Made by a program: the position numbers and the translations under genes. From Candidatus Yanofskybacteria bacterium (GTDB lineage Bacteria; Patescibacteriota; Minisyncoccia; 2-02-FULL-40-12; IGHO2-12-FULL-4), in assembly GCA_016181105.1 (NCBI GenBank), contig JACOZX010000003.1:1-42578 (forward strand): a stretch of 42,578 nt of DNA, read 5' to 3'. The notes below the pieces were generated by a model, which worked only from the letters and a program-made list of their open reading frames with translations, had not been told where the DNA came from and ran no database searches. Of this stretch, positions 1,245 to 37,463 are shown in pieces. Each line of letters opens with the position of its first letter. Within the stretch, counting starts at the first letter, position 1.

Positions 1245-1265
1245 GAGACATGAGACAAGAAACAA
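1245..1265. repeat. Heptamer array GAGACAT GAGACAA GAAACAA (left arm flanking the IVS-protein gene)
   Basis: Tandem 7-mers read directly. Nt 1245-1259 are complementary to 1622-1636 at 14 of 15 positions. The ATG of the enclosed gene (1250) lies inside this arm. Confidence 0.85.
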
Positions 1266-1621
1266 GCGGCCAAGTTGGATATAGGAAGTTGATTGTTTGG
1301 CAAAAGTCTCACCAGCTAGCCAAAGATATTTATAAGGTGACAAATGATTTTTTAAAGAGTGAATTATTTGGATTAACTAGCCAGATGAGAAGATGTGCTG
1401 TTTCGGTGCCAGCTAACTTGGTAGGGGGATATAGTAGAAAAACTATCAAAGATAAATTAAATTTTTTTGTTATTGCCAGATCGTCGTTGACAGAACTGGA
1501 ATATTACCTAGATTTATCTTTTGAATTAAATTATATAAAAGAAGAAAGTTATCACAAACTAACAGCTACAAGATCAGAAGTAGGTAGGTTGTTAAACGGC
1601 TTTATAAATTCTTTTCAATAA
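1250..1621 (+). CDS. Four-helix-bundle protein of the 23S rRNA intervening-sequence (IVS) protein / DGR Avd-like family
   Basis: 123 aa. YRKLIVWQKSHQLAKDIYKVT...FGLTSQMRRCAVSVPANL..GY...F..IARSSLTELEYYLDLS matches the hallmark pattern of this family (recognised from memory, not searched). Confidence 0.8.
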   Translation: MRQETSGQVGYRKLIVWQKSHQLAKDIYKVTNDFLKSELFGLTSQMRRCAVSVPANLVGGYSRKTIKDKLNFFVIARSSLTELEYYLDLSFELNYIKEESYHKLTATRSEVGRLLNGFINSFQ

Positions 1622-1650
1622 CTTGTCTCTTGTCTCTTGTTGCTTGTTGC
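1622..1650. repeat. Heptamer array CTTGTCT CTTGTCT CTTGTTG CTTGTTG (right arm, inverted relative to 1245-1265)
   Basis: Tandem 7-mers read directly. Its reverse complement is CAACAAG CAACAAG AGACAAG AGACAAG. Confidence 0.85.
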
Positions 1651-1654
1651 TAAG

Positions 1655-3723
1655 TTGAGAGAGTATCCAATAGAGAAAACTAGGAATATTGGCATTATCG
1701 CCCACATTGACGCCGGGAAAACAACTGTTTCCGAGCGTGTTTTGTTTTACACGGGAGTTTCCCACAAAATTGGCGAAGTTCATGAAGGTGATACGGTTAT
1801 GGATTGGATGGAGCAGGAGAGAGAAAGGGGAATCACAATTACCTCGGCGGCAACGACTGCTTATTGGACGCCGACAGGAACGTTGATACGCCCGGTCATA
1901 TTGATTTTACGGTTGAGGTCAAAAGATCTTTAAGAGTTTTGGACGGGGCGGTGGTTGTTTTTGACGGTGTGGCCGGTGTTGAGCCTCAATCAGAAACTAA
2001 CTGGCGTTATGCCGATGACTACAAAGTGCCCAGAATTTGTTTTATCAATAAATTGGATCGCTTGGGAGGTTCTTTTGAGAGATCGTTTCAATCAATTGTA
2101 GAGCGTCTGTCTCCTTTTGCCGTCAGGATGCAGATTCCGGACGGAGAAGAGGATCAGTTTAAGGGTGTCGTGGATCTGCTTGCCATGAAGTATTTCATTT
2201 TTGAAGGCGTTCATGGCGAACAAATCACAGAACAGCCGATTCCGGAGCATATAAAAGACAGAGCCGAAGAATTGCGCAATGTTCTTATTGAAAAAGTGGT
2301 GGAACAAGATGAATCAGCTATGGCCGACTATTTAGAGGGTAAAGAAATACCAATGGAAAGGCTCATGTCTATTATCAGAAAAGCAACGATTGAAAATAAA
2401 ATTATACTCGTCTTTACCGGTTCGGCCCTTAAAAACAAAGGTGTTCAGTTTATTCTTGATGCTGTCGTGAACTATCTGCCTTCACCAACTGATTTGCCGC
2501 CTGTATCAGGCACTGATCCCAAAACTGCTCAAGAAATTAAACGTGAAGCAAGAGACGAAGCGCCTTTTTCAGCTCTGGCTTTTAAGGTGGCGACGGACCC
2601 TTATGTCGGCCAGCTTACTTTCTTCCGTGTTTACTCCGGAACTTTGAGCAGTGGTTCTTATGTTTTAAATTCCTCAACCGGACAAACGGAAAGAATCAGC
2701 CGTCTTTTGCGCATGCACGCCAACGAGAGAGCTGAAATAAAAGAAGCTTTGGCCGGCGACATTGTTGCTACCGTCGGTTTAAAAGCCACCAAGACCGGAG
2801 ATACTATGTGCGAAGAAGCTCATCCCATAATTTTGGAAAAAATAGTTTTCCCGGAGCCGGTTATATCTTTGCGTATTGAACCTAAGACAAAAGCTGATCA
2901 GGAAAAAATGAGTCTGTCGTTAAAGAAACTTTCCGATGAAGATCCTACTTTTAGGATAAAAACCGATGAAGAGACCTTGGAGACGATTATTTCCGGAATG
3001 GGCGAGCTTCACCTTGATATATTGGTTGACCGTTTAAAGAGGGAGTTTGGTGTTAATGTTAATACTGGCCGACCTCAAGTTGCCTACAAAGAAACTGTTA
3101 CAACCATGTCAGAGGCGGAAGGCAAATATATCAGGCAATCAGGAGGCAGGGGTCAATACGGCCATGTTTGGCTAAGAGTTGAGCCCAAAGAGAGAAGTTC
3201 GGGTTTTGAATTTGCCGACGAGCTTAAAGGAGGAGCTATTCCTTCGGAATTTGTGCCGGCGATTCAAAAGGGTATTAAAGAAGTTTTGGATAAAGGCGTG
3301 GTTGCTGGTTTTCCGTTGGTTGACCTCAAGGTTACCGTTTATGGCGGTTCTTATCACGACGTTGATTCTTCAGAAATTGCTTTCAAAATTGCCGGAGCCA
3401 TGGCTTTGCAGGAGGGTGTAAAAAGATCCAAGCCGGTTTTACTTGAGCCGATAATGAAAGTTGAGGTCATAATTCCGGATAAGTTCATGGGTGAAACCAC
3501 GGGAGATTTAAGTTCCCGCAGGGGCAGGATAGAACAAATGAATGACCGGCCGCTCTTAAGCCTAAAGGTCATTGACGCCAAGGTGCCGCTTTCAGAAATG
3601 TTTGGCTATGCCACTTCCGTCAGATCTTTGACCGAGGGACGCGGCACTTTTACCATGGAATTTTCTCATTATGAGGAGGTGCCAAACAACATCGCCCAGT
3701 TGGTTATTGAAGGAAAAAAATAA
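1655..3723 (+). CDS. fusA: Elongation factor G, reading frame interrupted once (-1 shift needed between about 1867 and 1888)
   Basis: The N-terminal part (frame of 1637/1655) reads [23 protein letters not shown]...[23 protein letters not shown]. The rest (frame of 1804..3723) resumes at [23 protein letters not shown] and continues as full EF-G. TTG at 1655 is the likely start; the alternative is TTG at 1637. Confidence 0.9.
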
Positions 3724-3741: not shown

Positions 3742-4044
3742 ATGGACTTAAGAGAAATAAAAAAAATAGTTAACGGTTTGGGCGGGGTTGTGATTGTTGA
3801 CAAAGACGGGTCGAGAACGGTTGTTTTGTCTTATGAAAAGTACATGGAACTATCCGGTCAAAATCAAGACGAACGGGATGACTCTGAACAGAAAATTAAA
3901 CTTAATCTCTACGCTGAAAACTTTAAAAACGGAGCGGCTGATCAGGAGGTTATAGAAAAGCTAAATCAAGATATTGCCATTTTGAAAGACGAAATCAGAA
4001 GGAAAGAACTGCAAGAACTTGGCCAAGAACTGGATTCCGCTTGA
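3742..4044 (+). CDS. Hypothetical protein (N-terminus weakly Phd/YefM-like, acidic coiled-coil C-terminus)
   Basis: 100-aa ORF filling the fusA-tuf gap. VIVDKDGSRTVVLSYEKYMEL resembles antitoxin N-termini. No partner gene is present. Confidence 0.5.
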   Translation: MDLREIKKIVNGLGGVVIVDKDGSRTVVLSYEKYMELSGQNQDERDDSEQKIKLNLYAENFKNGAADQEVIEKLNQDIAILKDEIRRKELQELGQELDSA

Positions 4045-7529: not shown

Positions 7530-7696
7530 CTTGTCGGCAATTTGAACAAAGTGAAAAATTGCCGGTAACAAGCGAAACCCCTCACCACTTTTACTTATGA
7601 ACGGTCAACAATTTTAAGCTTAAAATTGTCCTAGTAAATATCGCTTACCGTTCAATAACAAAAAAGCAAACAAGTGTTGGTAAAAGTGGTGAGGGG
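7530..7696 (+). other. Two consecutive large hairpins between rplW and rplB (7530-7575 and 7578-7696)
   Basis: Stem 1: cttgt-cggcaattt pairs with aaattgccg-gta-acaag. Stem 2: cccctcaccactttta (7578-7593) pairs with taaaagtggtgagggg (7681-7696). Nested inside are ttatgaacggt/accgttcaataa and the palindrome acaattttaagcttaaaattgt (7608-7629). Confidence 0.7.
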
Positions 7697-7759
7697 TGCA
7701 GATATTCTAACAACTCAACGGCGCAATCAAAATTGCTTGTTTCGTTGAGAATAACTAGC

Positions 7760-11638: not shown

Positions 11639-11644
11639 GCGCAA

Positions 11645-11876
11645 GTTTAGTCAATATTCCTTTTTTCCGAACGCTCGTTTTCCCCAGCGAGGAAAACTTC
11701 GCTCGTATCAGGATGTGGATTCTGTCCAGCAGACTGTCCAGACCCCGCCATTAAACTTACAGCTTATTCGTCCCTATCGGTCCGAATGGGCTGTAAGATT
11801 CAATGGCTATGCAACCTGCCTGTCGGCAGACAGGTCCACAACCTGATGCGTCTCCAAAAAGCAATATCGTCTAAAC
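11645..11876 (+). repeat. 232-nt hairpin element between rplN and rplX, of the same family as 33506-33668
   Basis: Outer stem 11645-11665 / 11856-11876 (18 of 21 pairs). Inner stems 11707-11719 / 11835-11847 (12 of 13), 11746-11751 / 11802-11807, 11756-11763 / 11790-11797, and 11819-11824 / 11829-11834. Shares collinear blocks with the element after lepA (TTTTTCCGRACGCTYG, CCAGCGA, TTCGCT, TGTGGATT, AAAAGCAATA). Confidence 0.7.
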
Positions 11877-11904
11877 TTGCCGGGAAATCATATAAAAAAA
11901 TCAT

Positions 11905-24372: not shown

Positions 24373-24375
24373 ATT

Positions 24376-24428
24376 AAAAACCACCCCTCACCACTTTTAA
24401 GAAAAGAAAGTGGTGAGGGGTGGTTTTT
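24376..24428 (+). terminator. Strong hairpin terminator after rnpB
   Basis: aaaaaccacccctcaccactttt (24376-24398) pairs with aaagtggtgaggggtggttttt (24407-24428). It is flanked by an A-tract and a T-tract, so it is potentially bidirectional. Confidence 0.85.
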
Positions 24429-24465
24429 AATTGAAAAATTACTTTTTTTGTTATAAGGTTAACCC

Positions 24466-31741: not shown

Positions 31742-33504
31742 TGAACATCCGTAATTTTGCAATTATTGCTCATATTGATCATGGCAAGTCAACTTTGGCT
31801 GATCGGCTTTTGGAATTGACGGGGACGGTAGAGAAAAGAAAAATGCAGGAGCAGTTTTTGGATACGATGGAGTTGGAAAGGGAAAGAGGGATTACGATAA
31901 AACTTCAGCCGGTGAGGATGAAGTACAAAGATTATATTCTGAACTTGATTGACACTCCGGGGCATGTGGACTTTACTTATGAAGTTTCTCGTTCACTGGC
32001 GGCGGTGGAGGGGGTGATTTTGCTGGTGGATGCGACTCAAGGCGTGCAGGCGCAGACTTTGGCTAATTTGGTTTTGGCCCAAAAGCTGAATCTGGCAATA
32101 ATTCCCGTGATTAATAAAATTGACTTGCCAAACTCCAGAGTCAAAGAAGTTGAGGAAGAAATTTTTAATTTGCTTGGTGTCGGTCCGGATGAAATTTTAA
32201 AAATATCGGCTAAGACTGGCGAGGGGGTTAAGGAAGTTCTTGAGGCGGTGATTGAGCGTATTTCTCCGGCGCCGACCGGTGACGGCGAATTTCGGGCTTT
32301 AATTTTTGACTCGGTTTTTGACACTTACAAAGGGGTTATTGCTTTTGTCAGAGTCTTTGGCGGTTCTTTGAAGGCAGGAGACGAGATTAAGCTTTTTGCG
32401 GCAAAGGAAAAGGGCGAAGTGCTTGAAGTCGGATACTTTTCGCCTAAACTCCAAAAGAGTCAGGAGCTTCTCAACGGGGAAATAGGCTATGTGGCGACTG
32501 GCATAAAGTTGCCTCAAAAAGTCAGGGTTGGCGATACGATAATGAAAAGTAACTCTAGCGCCATGGCTCTGTCGGGGTATCAAGACCCCTTGCTTGTTGT
32601 CTTTGCCAGCTTTTATCCCGAGGATTCCGATCAGTTTGATGATTTAAAAGACGCTTTGGGGAAATTGAAACTGACTGACGCTTCGCTTTCTTTTGAACCG
32701 GAAAGCTCACCGGCTTTGGGGCGGGGTTTCCGGCTGGGATTTTTGGGCCTCCTTCACATAGAGATTATAAGCGAGAGACTGAAGAGAGAGTTTGGTCTTG
32801 GTCTGATAATTTCTTCGCCGACAGTTGAATACGAAGTGACTCTGAAAAAAGGACAAGCAATAAGAATACGTTCAGCCAACCAAATTCCCGACCCCAGTTT
32901 TATTGAAAAAATAGAAGAGCCTGTCAGTCAGCTGAATATAATTACACCTCTGGCTTACTTGGGTTCGGTTATGAAGCTTATCGGCGAGATCAGGAGCAGT
33001 TATAAGGAGACAAATTATTTAAGCAAAGAAGTTGTGCGTTTGGTTTACGAAGTGCCGCTTAGCGAAATTATTACCGATTTTTACGATCGTCTTAAGAGCG
33101 TCAGTTCGGGTTATGCCTCAATGAGTTATGAACCTGCTGGCTACAGTCAGGCTGATTTGGTAAAATTGGATATATTGATTGCCGGTGACAAGATTGAGCC
33201 TTTTTCTAAAATTGTGCCCAGAGACCAAGCCGAAAGAGTCGGTCGGGCGATGGTTGAGAAACTCAAAGATGTGATACCTCAACAACTTTTCGCAGTTTCT
33301 TTGCAGGCGGCGGTCGGCGGCAAGGTACTAGCCAGAGAAACTATAAAAGCAAGGAGGAAAGATGTTACCGGTTATCTTTATGGTGGAGACGTTACCAGAA
33401 AAAAGAAACTTCTGGAAAAGCAAAAGAGGGGCAAGGAAAGAATGAAAGAAGAAGGCAGAGTAAATATTCCTCAAAAAGTCTTTTTGGAGATGTTAAAAAA
33501 ATAA
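31741..33504 (+). CDS. lepA: Translation elongation factor 4 (LepA)
   Basis: IRNF.IIAHIDHGKSTLADRLLE.TG...........[13 protein letters not shown]......Y......Y.LNLIDTPGHVDF..EVSRSLAA.EG..L.VDA.QGV.AQT, plus the LepA-specific C-terminal domain. The ATG overlaps the toxin TAA (TAATG). Confidence 0.95.
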   Translation: MNIRNFAIIAHIDHGKSTLADRLLELTGTVEKRKMQEQFLDTMELERERGITIKLQPVRMKYKDYILNLIDTPGHVDFTYEVSRSLAAVEGVILLVDATQGVQAQTLANLVLAQKLNLAIIPVINKIDLPNSRVKEVEEEIFNLLGVGPDEILKISAKTGEGVKEVLEAVIERISPAPTGDGEFRALIFDSVFDTYKGVIAFVRVFGGSLKAGDEIKLFAAKEKGEVLEVGYFSPKLQKSQELLNGEIGYVATGIKLPQKVRVGDTIMKSNSSAMALSGYQDPLLVVFASFYPEDSDQFDDLKDALGKLKLTDASLSFEPESSPALGRGFRLGFLGLLHIEIISERLKREFGLGLIISSPTVEYEVTLKKGQAIRIRSANQIPDPSFIEKIEEPVSQLNIITPLAYLGSVMKLIGEIRSSYKETNYLSKEVVRLVYEVPLSEIITDFYDRLKSVSSGYASMSYEPAGYSQADLVKLDILIAGDKIEPFSKIVPRDQAERVGRAMVEKLKDVIPQQLFAVSLQAAVGGKVLARETIKARRKDVTGYLYGGDVTRKKKLLEKQKRGKERMKEEGRVNIPQKVFLEMLKK

Positions 33505-33505
33505 G

Positions 33506-33668
33506 GTTGGTTTTGCGTTTATTGCTTTTTCCGGACGCTTGCTCACCAGCGATTCGCTGCGCTCGCTCTGGCCTGTGGATTTTGCTTGCAGTGAAAAATT
33601 ATACTGCTCGCAAACCATGCAATCACACAGTCCAGAGCGCCCACAAAAGCAATAAACGCAAAACCAAC
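33506..33668 (+). repeat. 163-nt hairpin element starting 2 nt after the lepA stop, of the same family as 11645-11876
   Basis: A perfect 24-bp outer stem: gttggttttgcgtttattgctttt (33506-33529) pairs with aaaagcaataaacgcaaaaccaac (33645-33668). Inner pairings: cgctctgg.ctgtg with cacag.ccagagcg, and tttgcttgcag with ctgctcgcaaa. There is a side hairpin cagcg-att-cgctg. Confidence 0.8.
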
Positions 33669-33680
33669 GAAATTCTTTTC

Positions 33681-36227: not shown

Positions 36228-36306
36228 AAAAAACAGTGAATATATCTCTTTTTTGTGTCGGACTGTCGCCGCCAACTGCAAAAGAGATATATTCACTGTT
36301 TTTTTT
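36228..36306. repeat. Perfect 25-bp inverted repeat in the divergent ftsH/prfB intergenic region
   Basis: aaaaaacagtgaatatatctctttt (36228-36252) and its exact reverse complement (36280-36304), separated by a GC-rich spacer of about 27 nt (tgtgtcggactgtcgccgccaactgc). Confidence 0.9.
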
Positions 36307-36353: not shown

Positions 36354-37401
36354 ATGGCCGAAAAAGACATCAAAATAGAGGATTTAAAAACTGAACTCCG
36401 CCAGCTTGCGGAGCGTCTTTGAGGTTGCTCAAAAGAGAGAAAAAATCAAAGAGATCGAGGTAAAAATGCAGGCTTCGGATTTTTGGAAAGATTATGAATC
36501 GGCCCAAAAGACGACCGGTGAGCTAAGTTTTCTGAAGAGTGAGGTTGAAGAGGTTGAGAAGCTGGAAAAAGACCTTGAAAACCCCGAGCTTTGGCAAGAA
36601 ACGGAAAAAAGACTCAAGTCTTTAAAGCTTAAGACTCTTTTTTCAGGAAAGTACGACAAGAGCAACGCTTTGCTTGAAGTTTTTTCCGGCGCGGGCGGGG
36701 TAGATGCCCAAGATTGGGCGGCTATGCTTTTTAAGATGTATCAGCGTTATGCGGAAAAAAACAATTTTAATTTCAGGATTTTACATCAGTCTTTTGGGGA
36801 ACAAAAAGGTTTAAAGTCGGCTACGGCCGAAATCAAGGGCAGGTTCGCTTACGGCTATTTAAAAGGCGAATCGGGCGTGCATCGTTTGGTCAGGATTTCG
36901 CCGTTTTCAGCCAAAAACTTGAGACATACTTCATTTGCTTTGGTTGATTTTCTGCCTTTGATTGAAGATGTCAGTTTTCAAGTCAGAACCGAAGATTTAA
37001 AAATAGACACATTCAAATCATCCGGTCCCGGCGGGCAGAATGTAAACAAGCTTGAGACAGCTGTCAGGGTGACACACTTGCCAACCGGTTTGTCGGTGGC
37101 GGTGCAATCGGAAAGGTCACAGAGCCAGAACAAGGAGAAGGCTTTACGGGTGTTATACGCCAGATTGGCTCAACTGATGGAAAAAGAAAAGACAGAGGAG
37201 CTTTCAAAATTGAAGTCACAAAAAGAGCCGGGCGGTGTGGAGTGGGGCAGTCAGATCAGATCTTATGTTTTACATCCTTATAAATTGGTAAAAGACCACA
37301 GGACAGGCGCGGAATCTTCCCAGCCGGATAAGGTTTTGGATGGGGAACTGGGGGAATTTATCCAAGCAGAGTTGAATCAGGAATCAGGAATCAGGAATTA
37401 A
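36354..37401 (+). CDS. prfB: Peptide chain release factor 2 (requires a programmed +1 frameshift at 36417-36422)
   Basis: ORF1 is MAEKDIKIEDLKTELRQLAERL-TGA. The +1 frame continues EVAQKREKIKEI... with the SPF (RISPFSAKN) and GGQ (SGPGGQNVNK) motifs. Confidence 0.95.
36410..36423 (+). promoter_or_regulatory. RF2 autoregulatory +1 frameshift site (GGAG cgt CTT TGA g)
   Basis: An SD-like GGAG lies 3 nt upstream of CTT_TGA, the same architecture as the established prfB recoding site. Confidence 0.9.
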
Positions 37402-37463
37402 GAATTAAGTTCTTAAAGATTTTTTATTTTTTCCTTGATTCATAATTCATAATTCATGATTCT
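37374..37463. repeat. Inverted arrays of tandem heptamers (GAATCAG x3, GAATTAA x2 / ...ATTCATA ATTCATA ATTCATG ATTC) around a 28-nt AT-rich spacer
   Basis: Read directly. The left array encodes the last prfB residues and the right array contains the ftsE ATG (37456). Confidence 0.85.

Follow-up and report, generated by a model that had tools for sequence, protein, structure and literature searches.

A four-helix-bundle protein gene between inverted heptamer arrays at the rpsG-fusA junction: a probable mRNA counterpart of the rRNA intervening sequence

The str operon on contig JACOZX010000003.1 of a Candidatus Yanofskybacteria bacterium carries, between rpsG and fusA, a small gene for a protein of the four-helix-bundle kind known from ribosomal RNA (rRNA) intervening sequences (IVS), and this gene is bracketed by inverted arrays of heptamers. 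The stretch of DNA analyzed here (the window; 42.6 kb, 41% GC) comes from a Patescibacteria-like organism, carries its ribosomal operons str, S10, spc and alpha, and was compared with about 180 other loci, which are referred to by L numbers where they need to be told apart. Positions 1244-1651 of the window probably represent a self-contained hairpin cassette of the IVS type that resides in an mRNA, with arms that pair and would act as an RNase III substrate in the manner of the rRNA-borne relatives.

The mechanism envisaged starts from a promoterless gene between inverted heptamer arrays that is inserted co-directionally between the rpsG stop and the fusA start. In the str mRNA the arms would anneal, giving an imperfect helix some 23-31 bp long that closes off a 355-nt insert from the host message. 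The helix would bury the ATG of the cassette and leave only about 10 nucleotides unpaired between the S7 stop and the fusA start, the corresponding distance in an empty site being 8 nt. Cleavage of the helix by RNase III, by analogy with the rRNA-borne relatives, would excise the cassette RNA and part rpsL-rpsG from fusA-tuf. The cassette and its host genes are as follows.

1244-1266, + strand: 5′ arm, some 3.3 heptamers in tandem (A GAGACAT GAGACAA GAAACAA G), holding the cassette ATG (1250)
1250-1621, + strand: gene for the 123-aa four-helix-bundle protein (PF05635/TIGR02436)
1622-1651, + strand: 3′ arm, CTTGTCT x2.7 followed by CTTGTTG x2.3
225-635: rpsL (S12)
769-1236, + strand: rpsG (S7), upstream host gene (PF00177, E 5e-55)
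1655-3723, + strand: fusA (elongation factor G), downstream host gene, start TTG 1655 by homology

The cassette protein and its arms

The open reading frame (ORF) 1250-1621 matches PF05635 over the entire profile (positions 1-106 of 106; E 2.8e-36, 124.4 bits, cut-off 33.8) and TIGR02436 with similar significance (E 2.2e-34, 118 bits, cut-off 24), which bears out the assignment to the IVS-protein family that had been made in an original prediction from the DNA letters alone. A profile built from 38 relatives matches PDB 2GSC (XCC0516, E 2.1e-27) and 2RLD (E 6.4e-12), both of them pentameric four-helix-bundle structures. By sequence the protein unambiguously belongs to PF05635/TIGR02436; it is homologous to S23p, the protein of 23S rRNA IVS, and more remotely to Avd from diversity-generating retroelements (DGR). 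All 20 invariant columns of the conserved motif (SQxRR...ANIVEGY...ELEYY) are kept in the window protein, two near-invariant positions (P35 and E59) are changed, and a dN/dS of about 0.1-0.14 against its relatives indicates that it is under purifying selection. Its residues 1-6 (MRQETS) are encoded by the heptamer array itself. A phage collection searched for homologues yielded none.

The distant relationship with Avd raises the question of whether the gene is an orphan Avd of a degenerate DGR, an explanation to which we assign an extremely low probability. The two proteins have distantly homologous four-helix-bundle folds, and the Avd models are matched weakly (PF22296, 39.5 bits; NF033474, 39.3 bits), but these scores fall under the respective cut-offs of 40 and 80. 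No reverse transcriptase was detected in ten large ORFs scanned from the non-ribosomal part (24.5-39.1 kb) of the window or among 112 neighbours of homologues, positions 1-2000 contain no direct repeat longer than 26 nt that could represent a template/variable repeat pair, and the PADLOC defence models returned no match. A DGR had already been considered unlikely in the original prediction, and the parts of the window that were scanned agree with that view.

The position of the gene between rpsG and fusA was confirmed by the profiles of its neighbours. The 5′ arm begins 7 nt and the cassette ATG lies 13 nt past the S7 stop codon, while the first base of the 3′ arm directly follows the stop codon of the cassette and its last base lies 3 nt before the fusA start. 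The heptamers GAGACAT GAGACAA GAAACAA at 1245-1265 face CTTGTCT CTTGTCT CTTGTTG CTTGTTG at 1622-1649, exactly as first described: 14 of 15 positions are paired between 1245-1259 and 1622-1636, the lone mismatch being the T of the ATG, so that the start codon falls within the predicted stem. Tandem Repeats Finder (TRF) delimited period-7 arrays at 1244-1266, 1622-1640 and 1636-1651, and an inverted-repeat search returned two registers, namely 1244-1259/1622-1637 (16 nt, 94% or 15/16 complementary) and 1248-1266/1622-1640 (19 nt, 89% or 17/19 complementary). The two arrays pair with each other in the minimum-free-energy fold of 1225-1670. The predicted stem of 23-31 bp (-25.7 to -30.9 kcal/mol) surrounds the entire insert with the ATG inside. 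At -25.7 kcal/mol, the flank duplex is far more stable than those of 44 other genes in the window (mean -7.1, best -14.8). Among 3000 random pairs at equal spacing, this value was reached by 4.

Scans for promoters and terminators produced weak consensus matches only, none of which frames the cassette. Of the two possible fusA starts that had been proposed, TTG 1637 and TTG 1655, only the latter is upheld by the homology alignment, in which its M-R-E matches ATG-CGG-GAA of L088; 1637 is not. The fusA gene itself is broken near 1879, just before the DTPGH motif, by a 37-nt deletion with frameshift. The 37 nt are kept in five relatives, and their loss splits the gene into two frames (1637-1933 and 1804-3723), which reflects either an assembly error or a true lesion in an essential gene. 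Another small gene lies further downstream inside the str operon, a 100-aa ORF between fusA and tuf (3742-4044) for which no Pfam match was obtained. At the other end, positions 1-87, directly upstream of the rpsL promoter region, read by eye as the C-terminal end of an integrase of the rve/IS3 type (ending in PEFIRYYNTERPHMGLEMKTPIEVVRSY and a stop codon).

Paired arrays, movement and loss across the family

The wider family was sampled at 80 loci from many phyla, one genome per species, which together contain 86 homologous genes. Tandem arrays are present in the 5′ flank of 68 and in the 3′ flank of 74 of these genes (79-86%), compared with 43 of 344 control windows (12.5%), and their dominant periods are 7 (with 14 and 21) and 8 (with 16). 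The 5′ arrays are poor in C (12% C) and the 3′ arrays poor in G (11% G). In 57 of the 86 genes the cognate 5′ and 3′ flanks outpair all four non-cognate partners (17 expected; Mann-Whitney p 1e-16). The array unit varies by locus (AAGCCACG, GTAAGGGA, GTGACAA, AGTAGGT, GGGTTTA and others), and the 3′ array is always complementary; units that differ and yet stay complementary amount to covariation at the scale of whole arms. The arrays are a hallmark of the family as a whole, a feature that goes beyond the original prediction.

The genes sampled lie in ordinary housekeeping operons, for example pheS/pheT, sdhA/sdhB, atp, LemA/M48 and priA. In 63 of 78 cases the genes on both sides run in the same direction as the cassette gene, the median gaps being 37 and 20 nt, and no association was seen between strong arms and co-directional context. 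Neither a transposase nor an integrase, nor a reverse transcriptase as mentioned above, was found among the 112 neighbours. Apart from three, the sampled four-helix-bundle genes all have an ORF of protein size no more than about 0.5 kb away, on one side or both. Of the 22 loci that lack two co-directional ORF neighbours, 20 were scanned with Rfam, which found tRNAs only and no rRNA. The window cassette likewise lacks an rRNA context, the Rfam scan of the window having returned a single tRNA and nothing else. Judged from these neighbourhoods, the 'classical' rRNA location of the family looks like the exception. The literature searched, in which subscription journals were incompletely covered, contained no description of cassettes outside rRNA or of paired arrays around PF05635/PF13366 genes; hairpin-enclosed cassettes outside rRNA are widespread and apparently had not been described before.

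Several further features of the arms were observed. Stop codons occur in all three frames in 18 of 45 5′ arms compared with 11% of shuffles, a TAG or TAA in each unit being combined with period 7/8 (e.g. L007, L011, L017, L018, L021, L023). Three-frame stops were considered as the cause of this periodicity and rejected, as they are not general and the units of the window itself do not fit. A sequence resembling a Shine-Dalgarno motif (e.g. TAAGGAG) is found in 10 of 45 5′ arms and in 1 of 45 3′ arms. Arm-unit groups such as the AGTAG type span five phyla, and the proteins within a group are more alike (52-58%) than those of different groups (45.5%), which is consistent with horizontal movement of whole cassettes. 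Common descent is expected to make the protein sub-family and the arm unit vary together; such covariation is also compatible with a protein that might recognise its own arms. Two divergent four-helix-bundle genes with different arm units stand 1-2.5 kb apart at six loci (L003, L006, L009, L046, L067, L070), and multiple old copies per genome seem to be common.

The same plan extends to plasmids of cultured cyanobacteria (Trichormus variabilis ATCC 29413, Nostoc punctiforme, Calothrix, Scytonema and Picosynechococcus), where inverted tandem repeats flank five of six four-helix-bundle copies, the sixth, from Pseudanabaena, having direct arrays. Two of these plasmid cassettes interrupt CRISPR-associated gene pairs:

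L179, 689-1045 (Picosynechococcus PCC 7003 plasmid): four-helix-bundle cassette between cmr2 and cmr3
L180, 692-1051 (Pseudanabaena plasmid): four-helix-bundle cassette between cas6 and cas4, with direct arrays AAAGCTA x10 / CAAAAGC x10

That the cassette is mobile, as originally proposed, is indicated by its closest relatives. Proteins 57-85% identical to that of the window are encoded at no fewer than six distinct junctions:

rpsG|fusA junction: window, L091 and L085
HIT|rpsU junction: L081
following a Pyr_redox gene: L087
before FBP aldolase: L168 and L170
GT2|GalT junction: L172
also: L002 and L003

The ends of these sub-family copies are homologous, reading TAG[A/C]GACAAG[A/C]GAC-ATG-[A/C]RACAAG... 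on the 5′ side and stop-CTTGTCTCTTGTCTCTTGTTGC... on the 3′ side; their predicted stems measure 20-43 bp, and the ATG lies within the stem in 10 of 10 members. Mean identity of the 3′ arm among sub-family copies is 65%, reaching 92-100% for several pairs, while 4-fold degenerate sites are saturated at 36%. The first 24 nt of the window 3′ arm are 92-100% identical to those of L085, L087 and L172, whose 4-fold sites are 30-35% identical to the window's. With the non-coding 3′ arm far above the identity of 4-fold sites, arm sequence, and not pairing alone, is constrained. Judging from these alignments, the arms are part of the element and move together with the gene. A search for further copies of the cassette, as suggested in the original prediction, found none within the window itself.

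Gain and loss were followed at the rpsG-fusA site in a metagenome scan anchored on S7. In L088, the closest relative, whose S7 is 93% identical and groups as sister to that of the window in a tree, the junction is bare, with 8 nt between rpsG and fusA and 5 nt between rpsL and rpsG; the search for an empty site, likewise part of the original prediction, thus had a positive outcome. L091, with an S7 identity of 77% in tblastn and 79% in the alignment, holds at this very site a copy that is 85% identical, is frameshifted and has the same arms, and L085 (S7 66%) has an intact copy at rpsG-fusA. The divergence of the cassette protein tracks that of S7. The simplest history suggested by these comparisons is one of old residence in the lineage with clean loss in L088. 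When the window is set against the empty site of L088, its borders show no visible target-site duplication.

Gene-less hairpins and a second cargo

Hairpins of similar build that contain no gene were found in the window and in related spacers. The two in the window are built of inverted tandem 7/9-mers:

636-752, + strand: gene-less inverted-array hairpin in the rpsL-rpsG spacer, AATTAATCT x4.2 ... TTAGAACAA x5.7 (z -3.2)
37372-37462, + strand: second gene-less inverted-array hairpin, between a release-factor gene and ftsE, GAATCAG x3.6, GAATTAA x2 ... ATTCATA x3.6 (z -2.8)

The first of these is missing from L088, where the short rpsL-rpsG spacer noted above takes its place. The rpsL-rpsG spacer of L091 contains a gene-less hairpin whose unit family is that of the cassette arms (AGAGACAAGCAACAAG...CTTGTCGCTTGTCTCTTGTCGC). 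Among 39 distinct rpsL-rpsG and rpsG-fusA spacers of 45-260 nt, 22 gave z < -3 and 28 contained tandem arrays, nearly all of period 7. Junctions of 25 nt or less account for 48 of 76 cases at rpsL-rpsG and 35 of 74 at rpsG-fusA, and rpsG-fusA spacers of at least 45 nt for 38 of 74.

A second gene family is enclosed in the same way. At rpsG|fusA, L116 and L173 encode a GxxExxY protein (TIGR04256, E 9e-28; PF13366, PD-(D/E)XK nuclease superfamily) flanked by inverted arrays TTACGAA.../...TTCGTAA, which in L116 run right up to the S7 stop on one side and the fusA ATG on the other (0 and 0 nt). Inverted arrays with homologous arms of the TACGAA type surround 5 of 5 GxxExxY genes (z -3.5 to -9.8):

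L116, 3005-3394: GxxExxY gene in arrays
L173, 1501-1899: GxxExxY gene in arrays
L059, 147-535: GxxExxY gene in arrays
L174: GxxExxY gene between a histidine kinase and a response regulator
L175: GxxExxY gene between two glycosyltransferases

Another four-helix-bundle sub-family, with arrays of the AAAAGT type, is represented by L156, and a HicA toxin gene occupies the 584-nt rpsG-fusA spacer of L104. To judge from these spacers, small genes appear to find an insertion hot spot at rpsG|fusA.

Other inverted repeats of the window were observed as well. Perfect hairpins at 7577-7697 and 24373-24431 (arms of 18 and 25 nt) share the motif ACCCCTCACCACTTT, a palindrome that constitutes a distinct, REP-like repeat located both within and outside ribosomal operons. 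Long intergenic inverted repeats are present at 11641-11880 (25 nt, 88%, 190-nt loop), 33495-33679 (35 nt, 89%, 115-nt loop) and 36228-36304 (25 nt, perfect). Hairpin insertions seem to be common in the source genome.

Mechanism and relation to known systems

Several observations weigh against the cassette as proposed here. Across 45 well-paired arm pairs, A.C/C.A mismatches outnumber G.T/T.G mismatches 47 to 24 (p 0.009); the repeats within an array are not independent, and this bias is consequently taken as no support for the sense RNA and not as proof of a role for the DNA. The sense duplex is not more stable than the antisense duplex (24 vs 32 loci, p 0.35). As neither test reveals a sense preference, nothing marks the sense RNA as the selected molecule, and a role at the DNA level is a live rival. 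A signature of RNase III was not found in the window, a result that is uninformative for the whole genome, and the foot of the stem, whose arm begins 7 nt past the S7 stop, would be melted by a ribosome that finishes translation there. The fold of the full 446-nt region is unexceptional (z -0.1), and a dinucleotide shuffle that keeps the purine/pyrimidine bias yields a z of -2.4 only for the window arms (30/2000). Finally, the near-invariant residues P35 and E59 are replaced by L and G in the window protein, next to a conservative change of I57 to L, and with these losses the protein of this particular copy may be decaying. RNAalifold on mini-constructs of eight sub-family members found four pairs with double changes and a covariation term of +0.45, and was uninformative because the arms are too conserved and the tandem registers slip.

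The modest shuffle score is what would be expected if slippage-prone spacers of low complexity simply happened to be complementary and had no function. Such a coincidence is very improbable in light of the pairing test on cognate and non-cognate flanks, the excess of arrays over control windows, an arm conservation that exceeds that of synonymous sites, and the recurrence of the same plan in the GxxExxY genes and on the cyanobacterial plasmids.

A more serious competitor, which we nevertheless hold to be unlikely, is a foldback element acting as DNA: the arrays, as a cruciform or single-stranded hairpin, would drive insertion, excision and turnover through slippage and intrastrand template switching, and their complementarity would be of mutational origin. 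Arms that shift with the gene between junctions, a clean empty site in a sister lineage, gene-less hairpins in the same spacers, mismatch types that favour the antisense strand, a sense strand without energy advantage, and arm units and protein sub-families common to several phyla would all be accommodated by such an element. It is harder to reconcile with the absence of a transposase or recombinase alongside the cassettes and of a visible target-site duplication at the window borders, with an arm composition that follows the orientation of the gene, and with the co-directional embedding, which a purely DNA-level element need not respect. Moreover, the rRNA relatives are processed as RNA (PMC4990558).

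Alternatively, the stem could be a translational device instead of a cleavage site, hiding the ATG until the ribosome that ends S7 opens it, and also bringing the S7 stop next to the fusA start, so that the host genes would stay coupled despite the insertion. The geometry is suggestive, since besides the ATG inside every sub-family stem, the sequence CATG stands opposite the ATG in the 3′ arms of L081, L168 and L170, the arms abut the host stop and start in the window and in L116, the spacer of the empty site measures 8 nt, and the purine-rich 5′ arms often resemble Shine-Dalgarno sequences. This explanation seems rather improbable to us, as it is derived from geometry alone and leaves both the gene-less hairpins and the mobility unexplained; it is compatible with, and does not exclude, processing by RNase III.

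The IVS-type cassette that we favour in the mRNA is best judged against its namesake. ORF-bearing IVS in 23S rRNA also occur in Leptospira and Xanthomonas. Bacterial rRNA IVS have been known since about 1990, and their origin, mobility and the role of their ORFs are still open questions (PMC4990558). The helix-45 23S IVS of Coxiella burnetii measures 428-444 nt; its termini form a 28-bp stem, and its 5′ region consists of AGAAGA, three tandem GACAGAT and GACAGAA followed by the ATG of S23p, with a repeat number that varies between strains (PMC4990558). RNase III cuts this IVS at mid-stem, at the start of the first repeat, and the S23p ORF, described as undergoing 'reductive evolution', is thought not to be translated (PMC4990558). 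The likeness to an rRNA IVS that the original prediction had recognised is thus extensive: the window cassette shares with the Coxiella IVS (PMC4990558) the protein family (S23p/PF05635), the size (about 410 nt), a purine-rich leader followed by heptamers, ATG and an ORF-filled loop, a stem of comparable length (23-31 bp, predicted), a variable repeat number and the occurrence of decaying ORFs, as in the frameshifted L091. It differs in residing in a polycistronic mRNA and not in a helix of 23S or 16S rRNA, and, unlike the Coxiella ORF, that of the window follows a host stop codon by 13 nt and is under purifying selection. By this analogy RNase III probably cuts the helix as it does in rRNA.

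Similarities to other systems are more partial. Intercistronic RNase III hairpins, such as the T7 early mRNA sites and the E. coli rplL-rpoB spacer, are short and gene-less, contain no tandem repeats and are not mobile. The cassette resembles them in placing a long imperfect predicted helix between cistrons of a highly expressed operon, where cleavage would part the messages, and differs in its gene-carrying loop, its tandem-repeat arms and its mobility. Integron cassettes and elements of the MITE or foldback type likewise combine small promoterless cargo, co-oriented with the host transcription unit, with imperfect inverted repeats, and the gene-less derivatives recall the relationship of MITEs to full elements. 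Unlike in an integron, the gene stands alone between housekeeping genes, with no integrase among the neighbours scanned, no evident attC core and no cassette array; and unlike in MITE or foldback elements, there is neither a transposase nor a visible target-site duplication, and arm sequence is conserved within sub-families only.

Heptamer repeats named STRR were reportedly described in heterocystous cyanobacteria by Mazel et al. in 1990. Like these, the arms are tandem heptanucleotide arrays in intergenic regions of operons, and inverted heptamer arrays surround the plasmid cassettes of Nostoc, Trichormus, Calothrix and Scytonema. The cyanobacterial cassette units TCAGGAG and GGGTGTA presumably differ from the three units that are canonical for STRR, the literature searched offered no link of these repeats to four-helix-bundle genes, and the connection is a lead only.

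It is possible, and we propose it tentatively, that rRNA IVS are the rRNA-resident minority of a large, phylum-spanning group of mobile 'array-hairpin cassettes', with four-helix-bundle or GxxExxY cargo, inverted arrays of 7/8-nt units, a preference for stop/start junctions of housekeeping operons, gene-less remnants that may include STRR-type repeats, and a cargo protein that might recognise its own arms and aid spread or maintenance. If the cassette resides mostly in mRNAs, the origin of IVS becomes a question about a general hairpin element and not about ribosomes. A genomic grammar would then be common to tens of thousands of genes annotated as 'four helix bundle protein' or 'GxxExxY protein', and links of these genes to cas, conjugation and ribosomal operons could be read as incidental insertions; those at cmr2|cmr3 and cas6|cas4, in particular, could yield spurious 'CRISPR-associated' calls for the four-helix-bundle family. 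The proposal would also offer a testable explanation for intergenic heptamer arrays, and the presence of cassettes of the same plan in cultured Nostoc, Trichormus, Calothrix and Picosynechococcus makes the experiments feasible.

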